This document shows positions 12,441-53,277 of a stretch of 60,112 nucleotides of DNA, piece after piece. Under the pieces are notes generated by a model, which did not search any database, was not told the DNA's origin, and worked only from the letters and a program-made list of their open reading frames with translations. Source of the stretch: a candidate division WOR-3 bacterium (GTDB lineage Bacteria; Hydrothermota; Tepidihabitantia; Tepidihabitantales; Tepidihabitantaceae); contig CBFGJV010000016.1 in the NCBI GenBank assembly GCA_965649205.1, positions 1 to 60,112 on the forward strand. Reading direction: 5' to 3'. Both the position numbers and the translations under genes were made by a program. Within the stretch, counting starts at the first letter, position 1. Every line of letters starts with the position of its first letter.

Positions 12441-14021
12441 ATGAAAAAGCTTGTTCTGCTCGTACTGACCGTGGCAGTTCTTGCCAGTGGTGCCAATAAC
12501 GTCAGCATTGAGCGTATTGATGCGGTTCCGGGCAAGATGAATCTGCAAGGCTTTCTTACTACCGCCGAAGGCGTCCCGGTCGACGGTATCCGGGCCATGG
12601 TGTTTCGAATCTATCGCGACAACGTATTACAGTGGGAAGAAAGCCAAGATGTAAATGTGCGTCAGGGGCTTTTCTCGGCTAACTTAGGCACGGTGGTTCC
12701 GATTCCGGCTATCATTTTTTCCAGTGGTTCGCTTCACGAGCTGGAAATACTTGTCACCGGGCAGGCTCTCACGCCGCGCCTGACTCTGACCAGCACAGGG
12801 TTCTCATTCCGTACAGCCGGCTTGGAGCGGCCTTTGACGCCGGCCTTGGCGGAAAACGAGATTGCCGATGGTGCGGTGACTATGGCTAAGATAAATCGTT
12901 CTGGTGCCAATCCGGGACAGGTAATCAAATGGACCGGTTCTGCCTGGGCACCCCGGGATGACAGCGCGGGAGGAGGTGGTGGCGTCAGTTCGGTGGCTCA
13001 GGGTCGCGGTATTGTCTGTGTGCCTAATCCCATAGTTGCTACCGGTACAGTGCGTCTGGATACCTTGTACGTGGACAATCGTTATATCCGTAATCAGTCG
13101 ACAACTGAGCAGGAGGCAGATTTCCTTATCTCCGGTGCAGGTCAGGCTGAGCAGTTTGCCGGTCTCAGCAGTACCGAGGATGTACCTGGAATCTATGGGG
13201 CGGGTGGTCAGTACTGCACCGGTACTTATGGAGAAGCAGAAAGCGGTGACTGGGCTGGGGTCACGGGCGCTAATGAGGTCACAGGCGGAGTAGGGGTGGT
13301 TGGCTTTGGCAGTCTTTTTGGGGTGGCTGGACAGGTGGAAAACGCGAGCGGATGTGCTGTGTTCGGGGGCAATTTCGCCAGAACCGGAACCGGCATCATA
13401 GGCGCAGGTAACAACAGTCCTGGCCAGTATCTGACGGATGGCAGCGGAGGAGCTTTTACCGGCAGCAAGATAGGGGCGTTTGGCTACTGTTCTAATACGT
13501 CCGGTAACCGCGGTGGTGGCTACTTTGCTGAGCCGGGCGGCGGGTTTGCCTGGGTGGCAGCAAATGTAGGAGGGGTGACTTACAAGATAGGCGGTCAGGG
13601 ACAGGTATCGACAACCATGAAGACGCGGGCCGGAGATAAGGCTTTGTTTGCCTCTGAGATGCCTTCTCCATATCTCGAGGATTGCGGTCGTGGTCGGCTG
13701 GAGAATGGCCACTGCCGGGTAGATTTGGAAGACCTGTTTTCAGACTGCGTTACGGTTAGCGAACAGCATCCCTTGCTGGTGTTTATTCAGCTCAATGACG
13801 AATGCAACGGTGTATATGTGAAAACAGACAGTCGGGGTTTTGACGTGTACGAACTGGGCGGGGGACGTAGTTCGGCGGAATTCACTTGGCGAGCCCTGGC
13901 ACGTTGGAAGGGTTATGAAAACATAAGAATGCCCGACGGTCTACCTCGGCTGGAAGTAATGCCGACAGATAGACTTCGGGTCAACAAGGAAGTGAAAACA
14001 GCAACGGAGCGGATACGATGA
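12441..14021 (+). CDS. Secreted fibre/adhesin-like protein with Gly-rich repeats
   Basis: Signal peptide; N-terminal domain (xQGxL...WEE...GLFSxNLG...PR); IADGAVTxAKI and GQVIKWTGSAW fibre-like motifs; GVxG repeats; tail-fibre-like C-terminal domain. Confidence 0.55.
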   Translation: MKKLVLLVLTVAVLASGANNVSIERIDAVPGKMNLQGFLTTAEGVPVDGIRAMVFRIYRDNVLQWEESQDVNVRQGLFSANLGTVVPIPAIIFSSGSLHELEILVTGQALTPRLTLTSTGFSFRTAGLERPLTPALAENEIADGAVTMAKINRSGANPGQVIKWTGSAWAPRDDSAGGGGGVSSVAQGRGIVCVPNPIVATGTVRLDTLYVDNRYIRNQSTTEQEADFLISGAGQAEQFAGLSSTEDVPGIYGAGGQYCTGTYGEAESGDWAGVTGANEVTGGVGVVGFGSLFGVAGQVENASGCAVFGGNFARTGTGIIGAGNNSPGQYLTDGSGGAFTGSKIGAFGYCSNTSGNRGGGYFAEPGGGFAWVAANVGGVTYKIGGQGQVSTTMKTRAGDKALFASEMPSPYLEDCGRGRLENGHCRVDLEDLFSDCVTVSEQHPLLVFIQLNDECNGVYVKTDSRGFDVYELGGGRSSAEFTWRALARWKGYENIRMPDGLPRLEVMPTDRLRVNKEVKTATERIR

Positions 14022-14554
14022 AGCCAATGGTCATTCTTCTGACTGTGTGTCTTATCTGGTCGGGGGGACAAGCTTACCAGTTGCAATCCTATGTGCTTAG
14101 CGGTGGTGGAAATACACACATCTATTCCTCTGGCTACCGCTGTGGGTTGTGTGCTGGTCAGACTGCCGCTTCAGGTCTTCTCAGCAGTTCTTCCTATCGT
14201 GCGGTCATAGGTTTCTGGTGCCGGCCTTATGCGCTGGGCGGTATCTGGGAATCAGAACCTGCATTCGAGAACTGGGGAAGGCTAGCACTTGATCGGTGTC
14301 AGCCCAATCCCTTCAGTGTGCGGGCGGAGCTAAGCTACATTCTGCCGGTCAGTGGCCATGTACGGCTGTCGGTGCTTGACCAAACCGGCAGAGTTGTAGA
14401 GAGACTGGTAAATGGGTACCAAGCGGCTGGCAGATATCGTGTGGTATGGGATGTTGCGCAGTCAACACGGAGACAATTGCCAGCAGGCGTTTACCTGTTA
14501 AAGTTGGAGGCACAAGGGCAGATAGCCTCTCGAAGTGTGGTTATAGCTCGTTGA
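14018..14554 (+). CDS. Small secreted protein with T9SS type A/FlgD-like C-terminal domain
   Basis: Signal peptide; PNPF...LDQTGRVV...WD...LPAGVYLLKL C-terminus; ATGA overlap with the upstream gene. Confidence 0.75.
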   Translation: MKPMVILLTVCLIWSGGQAYQLQSYVLSGGGNTHIYSSGYRCGLCAGQTAASGLLSSSSYRAVIGFWCRPYALGGIWESEPAFENWGRLALDRCQPNPFSVRAELSYILPVSGHVRLSVLDQTGRVVERLVNGYQAAGRYRVVWDVAQSTRRQLPAGVYLLKLEAQGQIASRSVVIAR

Positions 14555-14627
14555 CTTTCTGTCAAAGCTGCACTTTCGGCCTCGGGCTGCGTGTTTTCAT
14601 GATAGGATAGCGGCAACGCTGTACAAC

Positions 14628-16610
14628 TCAGAATCGTGCAACAACCAGCTTCTGAGTTACGAGTTGACTACCGCCGTCGACAGAAACGAAGTATACGCCC
14701 GTAGGTAATGGTCTATTGTGATCGTCACTGAGGTCCCAGGTAAAACGGAGGTCAGGGTTGGCAAAGTCGGGGCTGATTTGCCTTACAGTTTTCCCCGTAG
14801 CGTCGGTAATCCGTATGCGAAGTGGGAGAGTGGACGCGGCCTGGAGTCTCAGATGTACCGAATGTGCAGCAACGCTGGGCCAAAGATTGAGAAAAGGCAA
14901 GGCTGTTGCCGATTCGTGGGGGCGTACATCCGTCTGTATCTGACCCAGATAGCTTATGCCGTCCAGGGCACAGGAGGCAGAATTGGTGATTCTCAGATAA
15001 CGGGCACGGCCCAAACCGACAGCATCCAGGTCAAAACTGGCATTGCCGGTAGCATTCCCCAGCGTATACCAGGGCCCGCGCCAGTCTTCCGCTGCAGCTA
15101 GGGAGTAACTCCCCACAGCAGTGACGGTTATATCGTGGCCTAAGTGGTTGTGTACCGGCTCGTAGGGGTCCACATCGAAAATAACACTGCTTGTGCCTGA
15201 CCCTAGATGATAGAAGTTTCCGTCCGGTTCCCCTAGAGCAGCGATTACCCAGTCGTTGTAAAGGTGGTTGTCGTCGTTTCTTCTTACTGCCACAATCTTT
15301 TGCGCATGCAACCAGGTTTGGTGAGTTTTACGGTTGAGAGGTATGTTAAGCACAACCGGTGTTTCCCCGGTAACTACAATACCGGTGAGGGTACGCGGTT
15401 CATAGCCGCTAGACCAGACACGTAGAGAATACTCTCCGGGGGCAAGCATCTTGTGAAAATCCCCCGCTGGCATATTGGTGTATGTAGTCCAGCGCCAAGG
15501 GGATAAAAACTCAACCCGGGCAAAGACCGGCTGGCCAGTGACGGAATCATAGACAAAACCGCTGATGCCATATCCGGCCAGAAGACAGAAATCAACTAAT
15601 GCCCGGCGATTAACCAGACAGATAGAGTCAATGCGCGGCCGGGTGGAAGGTAAGGCGGTCTCTATGGTCCAAGCCAATCCACCAAAGGCGCCAAAGGTGC
15701 AATCCTGGCAGGAGCCGTGCACTTCGTACCAGTTGTAGCCATTTATTGGCGTGAGGCGAGTGGTAGTTGAGCCATAGGTGGAATCGGCGTAGCGACGGGA
15801 GAGACTGATTATCCACGCTGAGTCAGGCGGGTCTGCCGGATGATTGTCCCACAGGTAATTCACGTATGCCGCAGTGGAGTGATAAGCGAATTCCAGAGTG
15901 GGAATATGAGTTTCGCTGTGGCTAAAAAGGGCGCGAGTTTCGGGTTGCGAATAGGGTTCAGAGTAACTCTGCCATTCATAACCATAGTCGCGGTTTAGGT
16001 CTCGGCCTGCAGCGTTGTAGCGGGAGTTGGAGATGTGTCCGTCCGGGTTGAGAATCGGTATGATCCATACTTCGCGTTCATTGACAATGCGGGTGGCGGC
16101 CGGGTCAAGCTCATAGGCAGAACAGAGGTACTGCAGAAAGGACAGGGTTATTTCTGTAGAGATCTTCTCGTTGCCATGGTGGGCGCCGATGAGCCGGATG
16201 CGCGGTCGGCCGGTGGCCTGGCGGGGTTGATTTGTTACTTTGACTGCGGGAATCCAACGACCGCCGGCAGAGAGCCCCAAAGTCTCCGGTTGACATATGT
16301 GTGGGTATTGCTCGGCCAGTAGGCGGACTATGCTGCACACTTCTGCGTAGGTGTAGTAGGTGGCGAGGTCAAGCGCAGCCTGTTTTCTGGCGTCGGCAAC
16401 CAGAACTGTGACCCGGTATCCGAGCGAGCGCAGTTTCTCTATCGCTTCATCTGAAGCGATGGCGGTGACAAACTCTTTCTGAGCATCGGTGATGCTCAGG
16501 TCTGCAAGACGCGCCAGCTGATAAACCTCGTTGTGGGAAGCCACGTCTATGCGTATCACTCTTTCGGCTGGCAGTACAGAAACCAGGGTAATTACGGCAA
16601 TATAGAACAC
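14628..16610 (-). CDS. Secreted M14 zinc carboxypeptidase with T9SS/FlgD-like CTD
   Basis: HHGNE, NPDG, DLNRD, YHS, TIE motifs; CarboxypepD-like domain; C-terminal DATGKTVR...WD...LPTGVYF...KLVV. Confidence 0.85.
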   Translation of the reverse strand: MFYIAVITLVSVLPAERVIRIDVASHNEVYQLARLADLSITDAQKEFVTAIASDEAIEKLRSLGYRVTVLVADARKQAALDLATYYTYAEVCSIVRLLAEQYPHICQPETLGLSAGGRWIPAVKVTNQPRQATGRPRIRLIGAHHGNEKISTEITLSFLQYLCSAYELDPAATRIVNEREVWIIPILNPDGHISNSRYNAAGRDLNRDYGYEWQSYSEPYSQPETRALFSHSETHIPTLEFAYHSTAAYVNYLWDNHPADPPDSAWIISLSRRYADSTYGSTTTRLTPINGYNWYEVHGSCQDCTFGAFGGLAWTIETALPSTRPRIDSICLVNRRALVDFCLLAGYGISGFVYDSVTGQPVFARVEFLSPWRWTTYTNMPAGDFHKMLAPGEYSLRVWSSGYEPRTLTGIVVTGETPVVLNIPLNRKTHQTWLHAQKIVAVRRNDDNHLYNDWVIAALGEPDGNFYHLGSGTSSVIFDVDPYEPVHNHLGHDITVTAVGSYSLAAAEDWRGPWYTLGNATGNASFDLDAVGLGRARYLRITNSASCALDGISYLGQIQTDVRPHESATALPFLNLWPSVAAHSVHLRLQAASTLPLRIRITDATGKTVRQISPDFANPDLRFTWDLSDDHNRPLPTGVYFVSVDGGSQLVTQKLVVARF

Positions 16611-18666: not shown

Positions 18667-18812
18667 ACCGCCAGCGTATGCAGAGTCTACTCAGGTTTCA
18701 GCCTAGCTGCCTAACAACAGGGTAGGCAATAATCAGAGCTGGGTTGACCCGGCAAGGAGAAAGTTTAGAATATCCTTGCCGGAAGAAGCTACCTAACCAA
18801 GGATGGTGATCT

Positions 18813-20228
18813 GTGAGAAGAGAAAAGTTTCTGCTGCTAGTTATCATCTGTCTGCTTTTCACTTCTGGTATAGCCCCGGCTGTTTTACGTGTGGGGGATG
18901 CAGCTCCTGATTTTACCCTGCCGGACACCGCCTGGGTGAACCATTCCCTCAGTGAACTGCGAGGCAAGGTTGTAGCCTTGGCCTTCTGGACCAATACTTG
19001 ACCGAGTTGCCTCGCGGAGTTGCCGCGACTTCAAGCTATATACGAAGACTACGGGGACAATGGTTTTATTTCTCTGGCTGTGAACCTGAACCAGAGCATG
19101 GACATCGTGAAGACCTATGCCAGACTGTATTCATACCATTTCTGGCGTGATAATGGTAGCGTCTGGCCGGTCTATCGTCAGAATGGATATGTTCCCCTAA
19201 ACTATGTAGTAGACGCCGGCGGAGTAATTCGTTACATCGCCGAGGGTTTTAACGAGTCGGCCATGCGGGAGGTGATAAAGCAGCACCTGCCCGACCCGAT
19301 TGACCGTGACGTAGGAACGAAAACAATCCTCGTACCTTCGGGCAGTCTGGATTCCGGTCAGACTGTGGTACCGGCTTGCTCAGTGTATAACTACGGGTTT
19401 TATACCGAGACCTATCCAGTGCGAATGCGTATAGGCGACTTCTACGACGAAGTGGTTACAGTCAGTGCCCATCAGCCTAATACATCCCGGTATGTCGAGT
19501 TTCCCAGCTGGGCAGCTTGGAGGCGGGGGCAGGCAGCAGTTACTTGTTCAACTGAGCTGGACGGCGATGATATCAAAAGCAACAATGCCGCCAGGGCCAC
19601 TGTTATCGTGTATGTTTATGATCTAGCAGTCCTGGAACTACTGGCACCAATAGACAGCGTAGATTCGGGCGCGGTAGTCGTGCCCAGTGCCAGGGTGGCA
19701 AATCTGGGCAACTGGGCCGATTTGGCCAAGGTGAGATTCACGATAGGTACGTTCTATGCAGAAAGCGTGAACGTGGCTTTGCAGCCCGGAAATATCAAGG
19801 CGGCTAATCTCCCTGCCTGGACAGCTACGCAGGTCGGGGAGTTTCCGGTGTCCTGCTCGGTAAGCGGCAGAAAGGACATGATTCTCTCCAACAACCTGCT
19901 TACGAGGACTGTGCGGGTATTGAGAAAAACGGGCGTTAAGGAAGGCAGAGAGGTTTGCCCACTGGGGATGATCACAGCTCACCCAAGTCCTTTCCGGGAC
20001 GCGGTCAGTTTTTCGCTGCCTGTTTCCGGCCCGGCCGAACTAAGAATAATGGATGCGACAGGACGACTTATTCGTGTTCTGCAGGTGCAGAAAAAGGAGA
20101 ATGAAACAGGTTGTGTCGTGTGGGACGGCCGGGACGATCAAGCTGGTGTCGTCCGGCCAGGCGTGTACTATGCGTATCTGGTTCACCCGGAAGGAAGCGT
20201 GTTCTACAAGCTGGTAAAGACCAGATAA
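18813..20228 (+). CDS. Putative selenoprotein: signal peptide + TlpA/AhpC-TSA redoxin domain (U-P-S-C) + two Ig/CARDB-like repeats + T9SS/FlgD-like CTD, 471 aa with Sec at codon 63
   Basis: The 62-aa and 402-aa ORFs are in frame, separated only by TGA (18999-19001) and six sense codons. Read-through gives APDFTL...GKVVALAFWTNT-U-PSCLAELPRLQ...VPLNYVVDAGGVIR, a complete redoxin with TGA at the first Cys of CxxC. Confidence 0.85.
19012..19028 (+). promoter_or_regulatory. Candidate bacterial SECIS hairpin
   Basis: TCGCGG-AGTTG-CCGCGA; loop starts 17 nt after the TGA and has G at loop position 2. Confidence 0.65.
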
Positions 20229-20263: not shown

Positions 20264-23113
20264 CTAGCGCAGAACGCAGAATTTCGCTGATGCGGTCCCG
20301 TGGGTAGTGCGGAGTACAGCTAGATAGAGTCCAGAGGCAACCGGCCGTCCCGCAGCATTGCGGCCGTCCCAGTAAGCACCTACCTGTTCTAACAGCTCAA
20401 GGTTCTGGTAACGGCCCGGGCGGGAAATAGGTGCGGTGAGAAGCGGAATGGTATCAACCAGTGTGCCAGAGATGGAATAGATGGAAATCTGGGCGTCTGG
20501 TGTGGGCCGGGCGAGATACAGGGCAAAATAGATGCGGTTGCTCAGGCCGGAGGCAGTTGGAGTGTTGTTTCCGCCTGCGGTAAAAGGATTCGGGAATGGC
20601 AGGATTTCATCGCGGGGAATACCCTTGACCCCTGGTTCGGGCGGAAAGTGCTTGAAGACCCAGTCGATGCGGGGTACACCATAGCCAAAAGTGCAGCTGG
20701 GAACGGTTCTGCCAGCCGAGGCGAAAAGCACCGCTTTGAGTGACTCTGCATTCCAGTTGGGGTGAGCTTCTTTTATAAGCGCGCAGGCTCCGGCTACAAG
20801 AGCCGTGGCGCAGGAAGTGCCGACAGAGCCTTCCAGCCCATACAAGGAATCTGGGGCGACGACTGCCACCGTATCAGACAGGGCTACCAGTTCTGGTTTT
20901 GTACGGCCATCAGAGGTGGGGCCGGTTCCGGTACCACGCCAGGGGAGAAGGTTTCTCTGTACGCCGCCGACAGCAATAACGCCGTAGGCATCAGCAGGTG
21001 CCGTCAGGTAGGGAAGGGGCCAGGGGTAGTTTGTGGTGTCCCGATTGCCCATGGCTGTGACCACTATCATACCTTTTTGCGCCGCTATACCCGCAGCAAG
21101 GGAAATCGGAGCGGTCTTGCCGTCGAACTGGTTGTCAGCATACCAGCCGCGATAGCCCAGGGAAGTAGAGACTATGTCAGCGCGGCGTGAGGCTGCCCAT
21201 TCCAGGGCGGCGATGTAGGTGTCTTCTTCCATATTGTATTCATAGTAACGTCCGCCAGCGGTCTTGTGGAATTCGGTCTTGGCTACCAGCAGGTCAACGC
21301 CAGGGGCAACGCCGACAAGAGAATAGGGCTGGAAGCCACATATTATGGAAGCCATTCTGGTGCCGTGGTCCGGCTGGTCTGGGGAGAAACGGTAGGAGTC
21401 AACTTCTTCCCAGACTGCGTTTGTGTCTCCTCGCTTCACCCAGGCAGCTAGCAACGGAGGAGCAGTGGCCAGAACTGGTTGACAGGAGAAACCGGTGCTA
21501 TCCAGTATTTGCGGCAGAGACCAGTTTGATCCTGCATCGGTTGAAGAAACCATGTAAAGCAGACCGGCAGATTCGTACAATACCGTCAGCTCGGTTTGAT
21601 GCGAGGCAACGGAAAAACGACCCAGGGTGAGCAGGCTGTCAGCAGCTGGGGTGCGCGGCGTCCAAGTCTCGCCGCGATCAGTGGAAGCAAGCACGAAAAT
21701 CCGGGAAAGAGGAGGATTGATCATATTGCGCAGGAAAAGTAACAGCTCTCCCTGATGGAATGTTACACAGAGGGCTGAGGCCTGGTCGGCTATAACGCGG
21801 GGGGGGGTAAAGGTGGCTCCGCCGTCGGTGGAGCGCGATAGGGAAACCTGGCCGGTATGCTGATCCAGAGCGAATACGTTCACCACGCCGGTACTGTCGG
21901 CCGTGAGTTTCAGGTCTTCGCAGGTTGCAGTTGTACGTAGCGACCGGCTGACAGTCCAACGAGGTGGAAGCGTAGTTAGGGTGGCTTTGCGAAAGAGAAG
22001 GGAGGAATCGGATTCTACGCAACAGAAAAACATCGTATCGGCGACAATTACCAAGTCCGGCCAGCGTCCACTACCTACTCGACTTGCGCCCTGCCAGGTG
22101 CCGTTGACGAAGTAACCTATATAGGCACTGGCTTCAGGACGAGCCCGATAGCGGGAAAGCAGTTCGTTGTAAGCAAGATAGGTGACCGAGTCTTTCTGTA
22201 TCATCCTGAGGTTCTCAAAAGTGTGAGAAGAAATCTGGGAAGCAGGCTGGGAAAGGACGAGAGGAACAGCGGAGGACCAGGTTCGGCCAGCATCATTAGA
22301 GCGGCTGACAAAAATTGCTCTTCTGGGTGCATTGTAGCTGTAGGAGAAACTGTCGGCTACGAAAGTCAGTAGGGCAGTCCCTGCCGGGCTCGTCGTCGTT
22401 ATCAGGCAGGGATCTTTTACCAAACCCATAAAGCGCAGACGGTCGGCAGGCTGGGGCTGAAAAGTTGGGGATGAAGCTGTGTAGAAATTGTCCTGGGACA
22501 GAAAGTCATACTGGTCAGCAATACGAAGTCCAAGTATGCCGGTGTTCTTGAGCTTCAGTCCGGTATCGAATATAGCCAGCCTTACTCCGGAACCGTAGTA
22601 GCCCTGAAAGAAGAGTTCTGGTATACCCATCATGGCAGCCTGGTCATAGGCGGCTCCGTAGAAGCGTCTGGTCATGGCAGTGTCCAAAGCCTGAGATTTG
22701 ACCCGATGACGAGCAGAAACTGGCACCGGGGCGGGGGTTTCGCTGTAGGTGCGTTCGGCTACGGGAAGCATATTGTGCACAAAAGGCAGTTCGGCAATCT
22801 CAGGCAGACACGCTTCGGGAATATCAAAACTGGCCGCATTTAGCCATTGGGAGACGAACCGTAACCGACCTCCCAGTCTCTCCACAGCTTCCAGGTAAGG
22901 TACATGCACAGGCAGGTCGTAGAAGTCACATGAGAGGGAGCCGGTTACGAGCGCAACTCGCCTGAGTGCGGTCTGATACTGAGTTTGGGTTGTGAAGCCT
23001 TTATCGGTAAAGAATACCCATACCGGCCGGCCCTTGGTCTGGGGTAGCGTTTTAAGTACCGGGGGCCTGTAGAGCTCTGGGCCGGCCAGCAACATCAGGT
23101 AAACGAGAAACAT
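20264..23113 (-). CDS. Secreted S8 (subtilase) serine peptidase with BNR-repeat insertion and FlgD/T9SS-like CTD
   Basis: IFDTG, DHGT, AMGN, KPELVA, GTSCA triad motifs; four SxDxGxxW/F repeats; PNPF...WDGRNAAGRPVASGLY. Confidence 0.85.
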   Translation of the reverse strand: MFLVYLMLLAGPELYRPPVLKTLPQTKGRPVWVFFTDKGFTTQTQYQTALRRVALVTGSLSCDFYDLPVHVPYLEAVERLGGRLRFVSQWLNAASFDIPEACLPEIAELPFVHNMLPVAERTYSETPAPVPVSARHRVKSQALDTAMTRRFYGAAYDQAAMMGIPELFFQGYYGSGVRLAIFDTGLKLKNTGILGLRIADQYDFLSQDNFYTASSPTFQPQPADRLRFMGLVKDPCLITTTSPAGTALLTFVADSFSYSYNAPRRAIFVSRSNDAGRTWSSAVPLVLSQPASQISSHTFENLRMIQKDSVTYLAYNELLSRYRARPEASAYIGYFVNGTWQGASRVGSGRWPDLVIVADTMFFCCVESDSSLLFRKATLTTLPPRWTVSRSLRTTATCEDLKLTADSTGVVNVFALDQHTGQVSLSRSTDGGATFTPPRVIADQASALCVTFHQGELLLFLRNMINPPLSRIFVLASTDRGETWTPRTPAADSLLTLGRFSVASHQTELTVLYESAGLLYMVSSTDAGSNWSLPQILDSTGFSCQPVLATAPPLLAAWVKRGDTNAVWEEVDSYRFSPDQPDHGTRMASIICGFQPYSLVGVAPGVDLLVAKTEFHKTAGGRYYEYNMEEDTYIAALEWAASRRADIVSTSLGYRGWYADNQFDGKTAPISLAAGIAAQKGMIVVTAMGNRDTTNYPWPLPYLTAPADAYGVIAVGGVQRNLLPWRGTGTGPTSDGRTKPELVALSDTVAVVAPDSLYGLEGSVGTSCATALVAGACALIKEAHPNWNAESLKAVLFASAGRTVPSCTFGYGVPRIDWVFKHFPPEPGVKGIPRDEILPFPNPFTAGGNNTPTASGLSNRIYFALYLARPTPDAQISIYSISGTLVDTIPLLTAPISRPGRYQNLELLEQVGAYWDGRNAAGRPVASGLYLAVLRTTHGTASAKFCVLR

Positions 23114-47779: not shown

Positions 47780-50700
47780 GAAGATTTTTTCTGTACCTTG
47801 TTCTGTTTGTTTCACTCTTATGGGCTTCGTCTCTGGGTGAGCCAGTAAAGTTGATACCTAGGATAGACTACAGGTTGGGAGTTGTGTTTTTGGAAAAATG
47901 GCGGGGAGACTATTTTTTAGGTGTCTCTAGAGTGTTCACGCTGGAGGAATACCTCAGATACCAAATGCAGACTGCGGTTTTGTCTAACTGGAAGCGGGAA
48001 GCGGTGTCGGCTCGGAAGCAGAAGGAGTATTCGTTGGATGCATCGGGATTGATTCCAGACATAGAGCTGCCCAAGTTGCCAGTTTTTGGAGAAGGGTCAA
48101 GAATTGACATATCAGGTCAAGACCGCATAACGCTCGGCGGAAGACAGACAGTCGTAGAAGGTATGGCGACGCCAGGTAGTTCGCGGCTTCTGCCGGAATT
48201 GAAGATGGAACAGCAACTCGCTGTGCGTCTGAACGGGACCATCGGTGAGCGCACCAAGGTAAACATAGACCACGACTCTCAACGTCAGCAGGGGAATAAT
48301 AGGATAAAGCTGATTTATACTGGCACAGAAGACGATTTGGTACAGTCTGTAGAATTGGGTGATACCAAGCTTTCTATTCCTGGTACTGCCTATACTGGTG
48401 ATCTACCGTCACATAAAGGTTTATTTGGCGTGTCAGCTCGTGGCAAATTGGGGGCTATAGATCTCTACGGAATTGCGTCCCGAGAGGAATCGCAGTCGCA
48501 AACGCAGACATTTACTGGTAGAAGAAGAAAATCGGTCGACACAATTTACGCTAAGGATTATGTTGCTCGACGTTTCTACCACCTGCGAGATATTCCGGGT
48601 AATATACTCGCCCTGCGCGTATATGTGGACGACAACATACCCACCAACAACCAGGCTTCCATTAAGGCTATTGCGACCGTATTTCCGAAAAGTCCCGATT
48701 CCATTCCGGTGAGTTGGAGCTGGGATCGGGACGGAGGCGATTTTGACCTGAAGGCACTTGGGGTAGACTATGTCCTTCTGCCCGACAACATACTTGAGTT
48801 TTCTCAACCCCTAAACCCCCAGGATGTAGTCGGCTTAGTGGTTTTTACCGATCGAGACACCCTGGGCGGAACGATGTACAACGATTCCTTGGTGTTGAAG
48901 CTGCTGAAGCCGGAAAGAACCGATTCACTTTCTTTGGCCTGGGATTACGAGATGAGAAATGTATATGCGCTTCGGCAGCGAGAAGTGCAATTGTCCAGCT
49001 TTCGTTTGTATCGCGACGACCCCGTCAGCAATATAGACGCGGAGTACGAAGACAAGGGGCCTAACAGTGGCAGGCTTTTCACTCAACTGCTGGGATTAGA
49101 TCCGGACGGTGATGGCCGTTTGGAGTATCCGGCGTTCGATTCTAAGACAGGTTTGATAAGATTTCCTACCCTTCATCCATTTGCTTCTGATGGTCTGTCG
49201 ATTCGTGACTCGGTCATGTATCGTAAGTACCCTTTGGAGCCGGATGAGGGTAGGAAGTACTACATGGTGGTTGAATATTCCAGTGCAACCGAGTCGTACT
49301 ACTTGGGCCAGGTCGATATTGAGGAGAATTCTGAGCGGGTGAGGGTTGACGGGGTGCTCTGGAATCGCGGTACCGACTACGAAATTAACTATTCAAGTGG
49401 CATATTGACTTTTCGTCGTACCTTGCCGGTTGACGCCAATATCAGCGTTACTTTCGAATATCGCCCTTGGTTTTCCCTTTCTCAGCGAACTCTGCTGGGT
49501 ACGAGGGCCGAATGGCCTTTCGCTGCTAATGGTAAGATAGGTTCCAGCGTGTTCTACCGCACGGAGGGATTGTCCGAGGATAAACCTGTGCTGGGGTCGG
49601 AACCGTCACGCAGGCTCATAGCTGAGGCCGATGCTTCCTACAGTGCTAGTTCGGATGCTGTGACTGCTTTTATTGATCGATTGCCTGTTTTGAGAGCACA
49701 ATCGCCCTCAGCTTTTGCGGTTTCAGCGGAAGGTGCAGTTTCTCTTCCCGACCCTAACACGAGGGGATTGGCCTATCTGGATGATTTTGAAGGTACGACT
49801 ATAACCAGAGATATACCTAATAATGCTATTCTCTGGTCTCATGCCTCGGTACCTGTAGGGAAGGACACAACTCAGTTTTGCCGCGAGCCTCTTTCTTGGT
49901 GGACTCCTACAAGGCCTCAGGAATTAGTGCGGAAAGACAGTGTTTTTGGTCCGGGTTTAGGCGAAGAAGGTAGTGAAACTCACGATTTTCTCCGGGTGAT
50001 CATGCGGCCCGATCCTGGTAGACCCGAATCTTGGGCGGGACTAATGATATGTCCTTCTCAGATTGGTATGAACTTGAAAGATATCAAAAATCTAGAAATG
50101 ATAGTCAGGTCAAAGCGTAATCGAGGCAGGATTCACGTATCGGTCGGGATGAGCATAGACGAAGACGCACCTAGGCGCACGAAAGGTGGAGGTATTGCTG
50201 GATATAATGGCCGCATGGATACAGAGGATCGTAATGGGAACGGAGTGCTTGACGAAGGTCTTGAGGACACAGGGCTTGATGGGATATTTGGGACAGATAC
50301 TAGTTGGAAAGCTGGTTCGGAAGATGATGGAAATGACGACTACGATCCGCTAAGGAACCAGATGGGTACGGAGAACAACGGTCGGCTAGATGGTGAAGAT
50401 CTGGATAATAACGGGTTCTCGCGCTATAACCACTACTTTGAGTGCGGAGTAAGCCTGGACGATCCGAAGTACTCTAGCAGTCTTTATGGAGGCTGGAAGC
50501 TCTACCGCCTTCCGCTTGAAGATACAATGTTATTTCGACGTGTTGGCTCTCCTAAATGGGAAGATATAAGACTTATCCGCCTATGGTTCGATGGATTTGA
50601 TGAGACCGATACGATAGACTTTTACTCCATTCAGTTCGTAGGCAGCCGCTGGCGCAATCCGCGAGTTGTTCAACAGAGCAAATATGAGCAAGGTGGCGGT

Positions 50701-53277
50701 GATTTCTGTTTACCGCCGCAGCAGAGGGTTTGGACGGATACAACAGAACGAGTCTGGGTAGCGCAGATTTCGCGCAAGACAGATACAAGTTATGTATCGC
50801 CGTTTCCGCTGAAAAAAGATATGTACGGAAGAATCGAACAGGAAGCCTCGTTACTCTTCGGCTACGAGGCTCTTTTGCCGGGTTCTCAGGCCCTGGTGGA
50901 AAAAGTGTCGGCCACTAAGGATGATTACCGTGAATATCGGGAACTGCGGATGTATGTACATGAGGATGGAAACGATTTGGATATCTTTTTCCGTTTTGGT
51001 GCCGACTCGGGGAACTACTACGAGTACCGTTCTCGCGCCAGAGACGGCAATCTGGTACCGGGAAGTGATGGGAAATGGTATGAATTCGTCATGAACCTGG
51101 ATTCTTTTCCGATTCTCAAGTACGTGCGTGATTCGTTGAGAAAAAGAGGAGAGTCCTTGCCGGAGGGAAAATACCGTCTTTGCGGCACCCCTTCGCTGGC
51201 AGATGTTAGATATCAGGCAATCGGGATTGTCCAGACACAAGCGTGGAAAGTAAGCGGCGGCGTTTGGTTTAACGATATCAGACTTGCCGGGCCCAGAAGA
51301 GACCCAGGTTATGGATTTCAAGCCCGTACCACGGTAGGTCTTGCAGACTTGGCAAACGCTGGTCTGTCGTTCGTTTATTCAGATCCAAATTTCCGCAGGT
51401 TCAGCGAGGCGCCGGGTGTAAAAACTGGTGGGTACGCCAACAGCATCAATGCCGACCTCAGAGTTAACTTGGATCGTTTGTTACCAGCAGGTTGGGGACT
51501 TTCGATTCCTTTGAGTTATGCTGTGTCCCGGCAGCGAGATGTTGGCAAGTATTCATCAATCTGGCCAGACCTGCGGCTGCCCCAAGGACAGAGTGCTGCA
51601 GAAGCTACAGAGGCAGGGAGCGAGGATGTGTCTGTTACCAATGTGCGTAAGCAGCTTTCTCGTAACAAGTTACTCAATTATACGTTAGAAGCTCTCAGTT
51701 TCTCTTGGCGTAGAAGACAGGCGCAACGGCTGGGGCTTCTGTCGCGAGATTCTAGCTGGAGTCGAATGTTGACTTTGAACTACAACGTCAGTCCGACATT
51801 GGATATTGAACTCTGGGAGGGTAACAGCATTTCGTTGTTTCCGCAGAACATAAAGTTTGGTATTTCCGATGGACAGCTTGCCGAAGTGCGTGCTACGCGA
51901 CAAACAACGGCAGATTCGTTTCGCACCGAGTTGCGACGTGGGCATACCCTTAGCTCAGATTTTTCCACCTCTTACTCTCCCCTCGACGAACTGAATCTGG
52001 AATATAGTGTGGAGACCGAGCGAGATTTGCTCGTATCGCGACCAGACTCGCTTTGGCTAGTGGCTATAGGTACAGAGGTTTCTCGAGAAGAAAACTTCAG
52101 TGCTTCTTATTCATTGGAAATTGGGGATTTTCTCAATCCTTCTGTGGATTTTGACGGTAGTTACTCGGACGAACGTACCAAGCTTGATAATAGGAACTAT
52201 GCTAATCACCGCAACATGGAAAATGCGGGCAATGTAAGTTTTGGTTTGGACATAGACCTACCTGAATTTTTCCGACGGGTAAAGGGACCAGATAAGGGTC
52301 CGTTTTCCGGTGTCAGAAATACCATAGGCAAACTAGGGGAAATATTGGAACCAGTTGATTTAGAATACTCATTTGACCGTTCCAGTGATATGGTAAAAGT
52401 TACCGGTCAGGTCCCTTGGTACTATCGGCTTGGATTGAAGAATTACTTTGATTTCGACACGCTGGAGCCACCTTCAAGTATTAGAAAAGAGTCAGAAAAC
52501 TCATTGCGCGTTTCCTCGGCCGCAAAGTTCAAGGAGTTTAAGGCCGGTATTTCATATGATTGGTCGAGCAGTCGCGAAGAACGTCTGATAGGCAGCACCA
52601 GATTCCCAACTGCAGACGTAAGTATCAGCTGGCCGGACCTAGATTTTTCCTTAGGGGGAATACATAAGTTTCTTGCCAAGTACGCAACAGATTCGCGGTT
52701 GTCAAGTGGGTTTCGCAGACGGACTACTCGTAGCGGTCAGCTGCTGGCTGATTCTCTGGCAACATACGGCCGTACGGAGAGTTGGTCCAATGAGCTGAGT
52801 CCTTTGGTATCTTGGACCACAACGTGGAAAAAGAAGGTTACTAGTACATTGACAGTAAATCATAACTCTTCTGTTACGCAAAACTATCTTAGCGAAAACG
52901 GTCTGACCCGTAGCCGTACCAATACGGATTCAAGAAGTGCGGAGTTATCCCTGTCGTATTCTTTTGCCGCTCCTCAAGGCCTTAAGTTGCCAGGCTTGAA
53001 TAGAGTACGTTTTTCGTATGATTTGCGGCTTACTTGGTCTTTACGGTATGCAATGGATGTGCAGAAGTTTGGGCTAACGTCCAGTGGGGGGCAGGAATGG
53101 AGCGAACCTACTTATCGGCAGCGCGATCGTTCTATTTCCTCGCGTTTGGCCGGTTCCTATAGCTTTTCTCGCTCCATAGAGGCTGGTTCCAATCTCGGTT
53201 ATACCTATACAAAAGGAATCACGGGCATAGGTACTAGGGCCACGGATCTAGACGTCTGGGTGCTATTTCGTTTCTAG
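47776..53277 (+). CDS. sprA: SprA/Sov-like large outer-membrane protein (T9SS translocon homologue)
   Basis: Signal peptide; QQLAVRLNGTIG..IDHDS..NRIKLIYTG.EDD.VQSVELGD, GLFG, G.DY.INY..G, YLDDFEG, WFNDIRL segments recognised as SprA-like; beta-strand-rich, terminal Phe; 1833 aa. Confidence 0.8.
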   Translation: MRRFFLYLVLFVSLLWASSLGEPVKLIPRIDYRLGVVFLEKWRGDYFLGVSRVFTLEEYLRYQMQTAVLSNWKREAVSARKQKEYSLDASGLIPDIELPKLPVFGEGSRIDISGQDRITLGGRQTVVEGMATPGSSRLLPELKMEQQLAVRLNGTIGERTKVNIDHDSQRQQGNNRIKLIYTGTEDDLVQSVELGDTKLSIPGTAYTGDLPSHKGLFGVSARGKLGAIDLYGIASREESQSQTQTFTGRRRKSVDTIYAKDYVARRFYHLRDIPGNILALRVYVDDNIPTNNQASIKAIATVFPKSPDSIPVSWSWDRDGGDFDLKALGVDYVLLPDNILEFSQPLNPQDVVGLVVFTDRDTLGGTMYNDSLVLKLLKPERTDSLSLAWDYEMRNVYALRQREVQLSSFRLYRDDPVSNIDAEYEDKGPNSGRLFTQLLGLDPDGDGRLEYPAFDSKTGLIRFPTLHPFASDGLSIRDSVMYRKYPLEPDEGRKYYMVVEYSSATESYYLGQVDIEENSERVRVDGVLWNRGTDYEINYSSGILTFRRTLPVDANISVTFEYRPWFSLSQRTLLGTRAEWPFAANGKIGSSVFYRTEGLSEDKPVLGSEPSRRLIAEADASYSASSDAVTAFIDRLPVLRAQSPSAFAVSAEGAVSLPDPNTRGLAYLDDFEGTTITRDIPNNAILWSHASVPVGKDTTQFCREPLSWWTPTRPQELVRKDSVFGPGLGEEGSETHDFLRVIMRPDPGRPESWAGLMICPSQIGMNLKDIKNLEMIVRSKRNRGRIHVSVGMSIDEDAPRRTKGGGIAGYNGRMDTEDRNGNGVLDEGLEDTGLDGIFGTDTSWKAGSEDDGNDDYDPLRNQMGTENNGRLDGEDLDNNGFSRYNHYFECGVSLDDPKYSSSLYGGWKLYRLPLEDTMLFRRVGSPKWEDIRLIRLWFDGFDETDTIDFYSIQFVGSRWRNPRVVQQSKYEQGGGDFCLPPQQRVWTDTTERVWVAQISRKTDTSYVSPFPLKKDMYGRIEQEASLLFGYEALLPGSQALVEKVSATKDDYREYRELRMYVHEDGNDLDIFFRFGADSGNYYEYRSRARDGNLVPGSDGKWYEFVMNLDSFPILKYVRDSLRKRGESLPEGKYRLCGTPSLADVRYQAIGIVQTQAWKVSGGVWFNDIRLAGPRRDPGYGFQARTTVGLADLANAGLSFVYSDPNFRRFSEAPGVKTGGYANSINADLRVNLDRLLPAGWGLSIPLSYAVSRQRDVGKYSSIWPDLRLPQGQSAAEATEAGSEDVSVTNVRKQLSRNKLLNYTLEALSFSWRRRQAQRLGLLSRDSSWSRMLTLNYNVSPTLDIELWEGNSISLFPQNIKFGISDGQLAEVRATRQTTADSFRTELRRGHTLSSDFSTSYSPLDELNLEYSVETERDLLVSRPDSLWLVAIGTEVSREENFSASYSLEIGDFLNPSVDFDGSYSDERTKLDNRNYANHRNMENAGNVSFGLDIDLPEFFRRVKGPDKGPFSGVRNTIGKLGEILEPVDLEYSFDRSSDMVKVTGQVPWYYRLGLKNYFDFDTLEPPSSIRKESENSLRVSSAAKFKEFKAGISYDWSSSREERLIGSTRFPTADVSISWPDLDFSLGGIHKFLAKYATDSRLSSGFRRRTTRSGQLLADSLATYGRTESWSNELSPLVSWTTTWKKKVTSTLTVNHNSSVTQNYLSENGLTRSRTNTDSRSAELSLSYSFAAPQGLKLPGLNRVRFSYDLRLTWSLRYAMDVQKFGLTSSGGQEWSEPTYRQRDRSISSRLAGSYSFSRSIEAGSNLGYTYTKGITGIGTRATDLDVWVLFRF

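Follow-up and report, generated by a model that had tools for sequence, protein, structure and literature searches.

Thioredoxin-fold selenoproteins with selenocysteine in the first position of the active-site motif have already been catalogued, as Table 1 of PMC13188914 includes UxxC selenoproteins of PF00578, PF08534 and cd02966. The recoding itself is therefore ordinary, and a first-pass annotation of the DNA studied here, the reading of which is otherwise supported by our analysis, overstated its surprise. That table holds no family tagged by a type IX secretion system (T9SS) or FlgD-like domain, and the term WOR-3 is absent from the article's text in the form available. The cysteine-containing relatives of the same fold, ResA, TlpA and DsbE (CcmG), carry a membrane anchor. 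A T9SS-exported protein with a thioredoxin motif is described for Porphyromonas gingivalis in the accessible part of PMC2907840: HBP35 has thioredoxin activity, resides on the cell surface, binds hemin and is proposed to maintain the surface redox state. SaoB, SaoC and SaoX, finally, are presented in the available text of bioRxiv 10.1101/2022.07.06.499078 as extracellular selenoproteins with signal peptides; they are (lipo)proteins of ABC transport and come mostly from monoderm anaerobes.

The gene analyzed here is located in a contig stretch of 60,112 nucleotides from a WOR-3 bacterium, referred to in the following as the window. Upon translation through an in-frame TGA it specifies a 471-aa product built from a signal peptide, a TlpA/ResA-type redoxin domain with a UxxC motif, two Ig-like repeats and a T9SS-like tail. 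It shares with the catalogued UxxC redoxins Pfam domains scoring over cut-off, Sec at the first CxxC position and a bacterial SECIS (bSECIS) just downstream, but differs from them by its signal peptide, repeats and tail, as judged from the catalogue's description and not from sequences (PMC13188914). In comparison with ResA, TlpA and DsbE, selenocysteine replaces the first cysteine, and a cleavable signal peptide plus a C-terminal tag stand in place of the membrane anchor. HBP35 has the same succession of signal peptide, thioredoxin-type CxxC and C-terminal sorting domain, but uses Cys, binds hemin and stems from a member of the Bacteroidota (PMC2907840, available text). As HBP35 is not among the PDB sequence matches listed for the redoxin domain (best 60 of 66), this likeness is one of architecture and not of orthology. 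SaoB, SaoC and SaoX likewise are selenoproteins with signal peptides outside of the cytoplasm, as predicted here, but have an unrelated fold and no outer-membrane secretion tag (bioRxiv 10.1101/2022.07.06.499078, available text). The literature searched, mostly open literature without supplements, yielded no publication on this family; larger selenoproteome lists may contain it. Of interest are the export-tagged redoxin architecture and the SECIS turnover; the recoded domain is of a known kind. Our preferred reading, for which we estimate a probability of roughly 0.6, is that a single gene with UGA specifying selenocysteine encodes an exported TlpA/ResA-type UxxC oxidoreductase that is likely displayed on the surface via a type IX-like system. 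The hairpin, signal peptide, Ig-like repeats and tail go beyond the first-pass annotation. The features are as follows.

18744..18771, plus strand: candidate sigma-70-like promoter, TTGACC-16-TAGAAT, 10 of 12 matches
18799..18808, plus strand: Shine-Dalgarno-like stretch ahead of GTG 18813, seen directly in the sequence
18813..18881, plus strand: predicted cleavable (type I) signal peptide, aa 1-23, ending A-P-A, by inspection
18882..19292, plus strand: TlpA/ResA-type thioredoxin-fold redoxin domain, aa 24-160, from Pfam, PDB sequence matches and model
18999..19001, plus strand: in-frame UGA, inferred selenocysteine 63, first position of UxxC
19008..19010, plus strand: Cys66, second (resolving) residue of UxxC
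19012..19028, plus strand: predicted bacterial SECIS hairpin, 6-bp stem, 5-nt loop AGUUG, -9.0 kcal/mol
19302..19619, plus strand: Ig-like (CARDB-like) repeat 1, aa 164-269, all-beta in the model
19620..19922, plus strand: Ig-like (CARDB-like) repeat 2, aa 270-370, from repeat comparison and model
19932..20225, plus strand: T9SS type-A-like / FlgD_ig C-terminal domain, aa 374-471
20226..20228, plus strand: true stop codon TAA

Promoter-like patterns were found at two sites compared with 1.0 expected in shuffled sequences, and the promoter is therefore a weak candidate. The 62-aa ORF starting at GTG 18813 ends with the TGA at 18999-19001, and the same frame proceeds with CCG AGT TGC CTC GCG GAG TTG and encounters its next stop only at TAA 20226-20228, in agreement with the first-pass annotation, which had joined it to the following 402-aa ORF. 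That standard gene callers split the gene and that neither half is a complete domain was also correctly anticipated: a standard caller returns 18813-19001 and 19020-20228, while the AhpC-TSA match (PF00578, 60.2 bits, cut-off 26) covers residues 27-141 and straddles the TGA. Ten of 16 database matches are fragments that start after the TGA, and the GenBank copy MEO0082452.1 is named solely for its FlgD-like tail. Reading the gene as a whole corrects this systematic annotation error.

The alternative that the TGA is a true stop, be it through a nonsense mutation, an assembly error or the presence of two separate genes, draws on the fact that TGA is the most frequent stop among the long ORFs of the genome (469 of 1099) and that TTG 19020 could start the 402-aa ORF, of the kind found as fragments in databases. 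The same frequency rules out a genome-wide reassignment of UGA, as the first-pass annotation had concluded. Contigs from two independent public DNA metagenome runs, about 91-93% identical to the window, cover the site and retain the TGA; each differs from the window at eight positions within 18940-19100 and at none within 18949-19036. An assembly error is thereby excluded in practice. A separate second ORF would lack signal peptide and active site. Together with the Sec machinery, the covarying hairpin and the 74 of 81 homologous domains that bear TGA with frames intact on both sides, all treated below, these observations leave the true-stop reading very improbable and effectively refuted.

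The genome, which is 97.95% complete, contains selA, selB, selC and selD as expected for a SelB/SECIS-decoded selenoprotein gene, and the absence of this machinery, which would have spoken against the first-pass reading, was not encountered. Matches over cut-off were obtained for SelA (497 bits), SelD (342 bits), tRNA-Sec (73 bits) and the SelB winged-helix domain, and selD itself has an in-frame TGA and a hairpin with an AGUUG loop. Of the 44 genomes of the taxonomic family, 41 gave a match to selA, 43 to the SelB domain and 39 to tRNA-Sec; in TGA-bearing genomes outside of the family a selB match was found in 11 of 11 tested and exceeded the cut-off in ten. The selB match G059:C176:2155-2823 spans only positions 1-227 and has a TGA, and the redoxin copy of that genome also has one. 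Further in-frame TGA candidates in the genome studied here (G000) lie at C13:2856(-), C6:78193(+), C4:64850(+), C8:48803(+) and C8:78876(-), four of them in genes that encode the tail (UGGC in two, CU and GU in one each) and one in a redoxin-like gene (UGYC). Insertion of tryptophan or cysteine at the UGA by recoding or leaky read-through has in its favor that three homologues have Cys in the corresponding column. However, the only tRNA with a TCA anticodon found in the genome is tRNA-Sec, UGA terminates a large share of long ORFs as stated above, and the geometry of the SECIS is in place; the probability of this reading is negligible.

The bSECIS model given in Fig. 2 and the accessible text of PMC13188914 comprises a loop of 3-9 nt, a stem of 4-16 bp, a G in the first two loop positions, a spacing of 16-37 nt and an MFE <= -7.5. 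The hairpin at 19012-19028, the loop of which begins 16 nt after the UGA, fits all four constraints of this model (PMC13188914), while the optional N1-N2 loop pair is absent. Folding energy alone is unremarkable (z -0.1 to -1.5) and was dropped as evidence, and a loose genome-wide SECIS scan gave 120 matches that are mostly due to chance and were not counted as support. The weight of the hairpin therefore rests on covariation among related sequences. In an alignment of 61 TGA copies (57 distinct), from which 12 copies of a family designated f39 and one frameshifted copy were left out, all 342 of 342 stem cells are paired and two-sided changes occur at four of the six pairs, counts which are inflated by kinship among the copies. 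None of 500 shuffles reached the covariation score, and slid controls were 25-66% paired. In the clearest pair, the second position of one codon changes in step with a synonymous third position, that of an Arg codon (G-C 35, T-A 23, A-T 1, C-G 1, G-T 1). Furthermore, the Leu codon in the loop is TTG or TTA in 58 of 58 Leu cases, compared with 10% TTR elsewhere in the same genes. As far as sequence comparison can tell, the covarying hairpin is a SECIS.

The f39 copies (12 in three genomes) depart from this arrangement. The original stem position is unpaired (41.7% pairing). A new stem, placed about 8 nt further downstream, is 92.9% paired, shows two-sided changes at four of seven pairs and encloses a 4-nt loop, mostly AGGU, at +24. 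The shifted element occurs at loci L116, L118, L119, L122, L124 and L127-L129 (genomes G256-G258). As the hairpin loop of the f39 selD is still found at about +19, the shift looks gene-specific, and a lineage-wide change in SelB spacing as its cause is unsupported.

Homologues were sought by searching the redoxin domain across 272 genomes of the phylum, and the 81 best matches (E <= 7e-22), among 150 listed and with 244 weaker ones besides, were compared. In this set the Sec column reads TGA in 74 cases, TGC (Cys) in three, GAC (Asp) in three and TCA (Ser) in one; close homologues thus do bear TGA, and the in-frame UGA is aligned with their catalytic cysteine as well as with the first of the two cysteines in the CxxC of ResA. 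Five weaker matches from a family designated f20, picked for having TGA, stand outside this count. The column of Cys66 holds Cys in 73 of the 74 TGA-bearing homologues and Ser in one. A TGA copy is present in 38 of the 41 genomes of the bacterium's family in which the search gave a match, and one of these copies (G028) is frameshifted just past the TGA. At the locus concerned in G028, L123, the frame shifts by one base within the SECIS stem, and L092 (G035) has a TAG upstream of the Sec codon; each may be a pseudogene or an assembly error. With the Sec machinery, the TGA in homologues and the covarying SECIS pointing in the same direction, the UGA at 18999-19001 is almost certainly decoded as selenocysteine, and the first-pass assignment of codon 63 stands.

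The exceptions at the Sec column are informative about the history of the family. In G014 (92% complete) a Cys copy lacking the hairpin coincides with the absence of any selA, selB or tRNA-Sec match. The genomes hosting the other two Cys copies, G015 and G022, retain selB and tRNA-Sec, and one of these two copies still has an intact hairpin. Two of the three Cys copies thus coexist with selB and tRNA-Sec, so that having Cys does not go hand in hand with losing the machinery, and a strict linkage, true for G014 only, was rejected. Asp paralogues (DxxS or DxxC) are found at L097:2137-2196, L105:2265-2324 and L112:1503-1562 (minus strand) and in P0007; the three locus copies stand in tandem with Sec copies, and one of them retains the full hairpin. 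There are also one UxxS copy (L111) and one SxxC copy (L122). The Asp and Ser paralogues indicate that some copies persist without the nucleophile. In a quick, midpoint-rooted tree with many open forks, the Cys, Asp and Ser copies nest inside TGA clades, which suggests that Sec is the ancestral state of the redoxin family. Long forms account for 28 of the 81 domains, short redoxin-plus-tail forms for 44 and other forms for nine. Fusions at L122 (G257:C6:118500-125800), L129, P0043 and P0092 place the redoxin after larger N-terminal domains or before Kelch repeats and end in the same type of tail, three copies being in tandem in G257.

The redoxin domain has the motif W-T-N-T-U-P-S-C-L-A-E-L-P, corresponding to the W-x(3)-(C/U)xxC-x-x-E-x-P register of ResA, TlpA and DsbE, and the later proline (Pro128); W59, U63, C66, E69, P71 and P128 are invariant in the 28 long forms when U is read as C. 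Besides PF00578 it matches PF08534 over cut-off (45.1 vs 26.6 bits), and its PDB sequence matches include ResA and 3hdc. In an AlphaFold model of the 471-aa protein (pLDDT 86.8), a domain with thioredoxin fold is followed by the two repeats, both all-beta, and by a tail that is likewise of beta structure. The modelled redoxin domain matches ResA in Foldseek with a TM of 0.84-0.87 by target length, and U63 aligns with the first CxxC cysteine. The equivalog cut-offs of NCBIfam NF002854 (ResA, 62.8/170), NF047696 (TlpA, 30.5/230) and NF041054 (WAxxUGC, 26.8/300) are missed by a wide margin.

An exported selenoprotein of this kind might instead scavenge peroxide or bind soft metals or metalloids at the surface and take no part in protein disulfide exchange. 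PF00578 does take in peroxiredoxin-like proteins, selenium-metal binding has been proposed for extracellular SAO selenoproteins (bioRxiv 2022.07.06.499078, available text), and the Asp and Ser paralogues and the single UxxS copy could suit a ligand role. However, the peroxiredoxin motif PxxxTxxC/U is absent from the sequence FWTNTUPSC and the PrxU model scores 19.8 vs 270, the nearest structures are those of ResA, TlpA and DsbE, and the resolving cysteine is kept in nearly all TGA copies. We consider a peroxide- or metal-related role improbable. A surface disulfide oxidoreductase is the likely function on the basis of sequence.

The predicted signal peptide is apparent by inspection and is conserved, as stand-alone homologues have a basic-hydrophobic-AxA N-terminus at the equivalent place; a T9SS type A cargo is expected to have one. 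The two Ig-like repeats are 39% identical to each other (E 7e-21). Repeat 1 alone gave no match in Pfam, and the repeat family profile matches 3idu/2kl6 at E 6e-5, structures which we take to be CARDB. There are 103 such repeats in 35 ORFs of the genome. The tail is preceded by a T-G linker, the Gly of which is invariant in the 28 long forms, and has a nearly invariant Lys in its last strand. It matches FlgD_ig and Por_Secre_tail just under the cut-offs (TIGR04183, 19.8 vs 23 bits); 17 of 21 homologous tails match the type A CTD (TIGR04183/PF18962) at E <= 0.01, and the family member P0043 exceeds the Por_Secre_tail cut-off. When modelled alone, the tail forms seven strands. In a structural comparison with 48,161 chains, the PorU CTD ranks first (Z 11.4, rmsd 2.6 over 96 aligned positions), on a par with Vpr (11.2), and the CTDs of PorZ (9.4) and mirolase (9.0) score lower. 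A whole-chain Foldseek ranking of PorU was discarded on account of its rmsd of 24, and the tail-alone model was used in its place. Foldseek on the tail puts FlgD first, and the tail resembles FlgD and generic Ig domains as well. The T-G linker resembles the PorU cleavage motif T/E/D/N|G/A/S given in the accessible text of PMC10202324, a likeness in sequence that may lend weak support to cleavage at this site.

A translocon and a shuttle for such cargo are encoded in the genome. An SprA/Sov-like gene is found in the window itself (47905-52278, 475 bits, over cut-off, 1852-codon frame), the PorV family has seven matches over cut-off, and a PorU-like gene reaches 382.6 vs a cut-off of 420. The same tail occurs on 79 ORFs of the genome. 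GldK gave a sub-cut-off match only, and GldM and GldN gave none in the genome, but as the control searches remained silent everywhere, the absence of these two is not established. The adjoining regions 12441-16610 and 20264-23113 encode secreted proteins. An M14 carboxypeptidase, an S8 peptidase bearing BNR repeats and a protein of 178 aa share the tail, and a neighboring 526-aa protein has no Pfam match. A conserved neighbor or donor gene is not apparent across the family; the clusters obtained are confined to subclades or consist of frames antisense to the gene. A cytochrome c maturation context was not seen among the neighbors. On another contig a CcdA/DsbD_TM gene (L137:1417-2675, G000 C11) is followed by one for a thioredoxin-like lipoprotein (CLPC) and preceded by a gene that, from its appearance, we presume to be ArsR-like. 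CcdA is a candidate periplasmic electron source.

These findings bear on the possibility that the selenoprotein stays in the periplasm, where the tail would be a generic Ig/FlgD-like domain or a docking tag and the redoxin, supplied with electrons by CcdA, would do ResA/TlpA-like work on envelope proteins. The CcdA gene next to a thioredoxin-like lipoprotein would solve the problem of the electron donor, the searches found no T9SS motor genes, and the tail remains under the T9SS cut-off. This is countered by the SprA, PorV and PorU-like genes, by the many tail-bearing ORFs including the neighboring peptidases, by the PorU CTD as best fold match of the tail, and by the fact that the protein is without a membrane anchor. 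We regard a periplasmic location as unlikely.

Under the preferred reading of a surface-displayed enzyme, the sequence of events would be the following. SelB, carrying Sec-tRNA, would recognize the hairpin at 19012-19028, leading to insertion of Sec63; the genes and the hairpin are present, and of the insertion we are nearly certain. The signal peptide would very probably carry the chain across the inner membrane. It is fairly probable that the C-terminal Ig domain then routes the chain via SprA and PorV; a PorU-like protease may cut at the T-G linker and anchor the remainder, and the two Ig repeats would act as a spacer. With somewhat less assurance, though still as the probable course, the selenolate of Sec63 would attack disulfides of substrates and Cys66 would resolve the intermediate, so that the protein would work as reductase or isomerase for surface or secreted proteins, the most likely substrates being the many Cys-bearing cargo proteins with Ig repeats. 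A wider picture is put forward tentatively, and we would sooner doubt than endorse it as a whole: a divergent type IX system without a recognizable motor might display a WOR-3 selenoenzyme on the outer surface, with Sec likely ancestral across five families of the phylum, where it might keep the disulfides of a large Ig-repeat surface proteome through a trans-envelope electron relay, its SECIS moving within the coding sequence.

The family represents a natural experiment on SECIS design, in which compensatory changes in the stem, decay after Sec-to-Cys or Sec-to-Asp replacement and an 8-nt relocation can be followed side by side. With it, the catalogue of bacterial selenoproteins, in which T9SS-tagged families are missing, gains a redoxin with an export tag. 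Should the protein reach the surface, the question arises of how a selenoenzyme on the outer face of the cell is re-reduced. In that case the finding would also support the presence of T9SS in a phylum that is not named in the T9SS literature consulted: the available text of PMC11285876 names other FCB phyla as possibly having T9SS, without WOR-3 among them, and that of PMC11205867 does not mention WOR-3 in this context.
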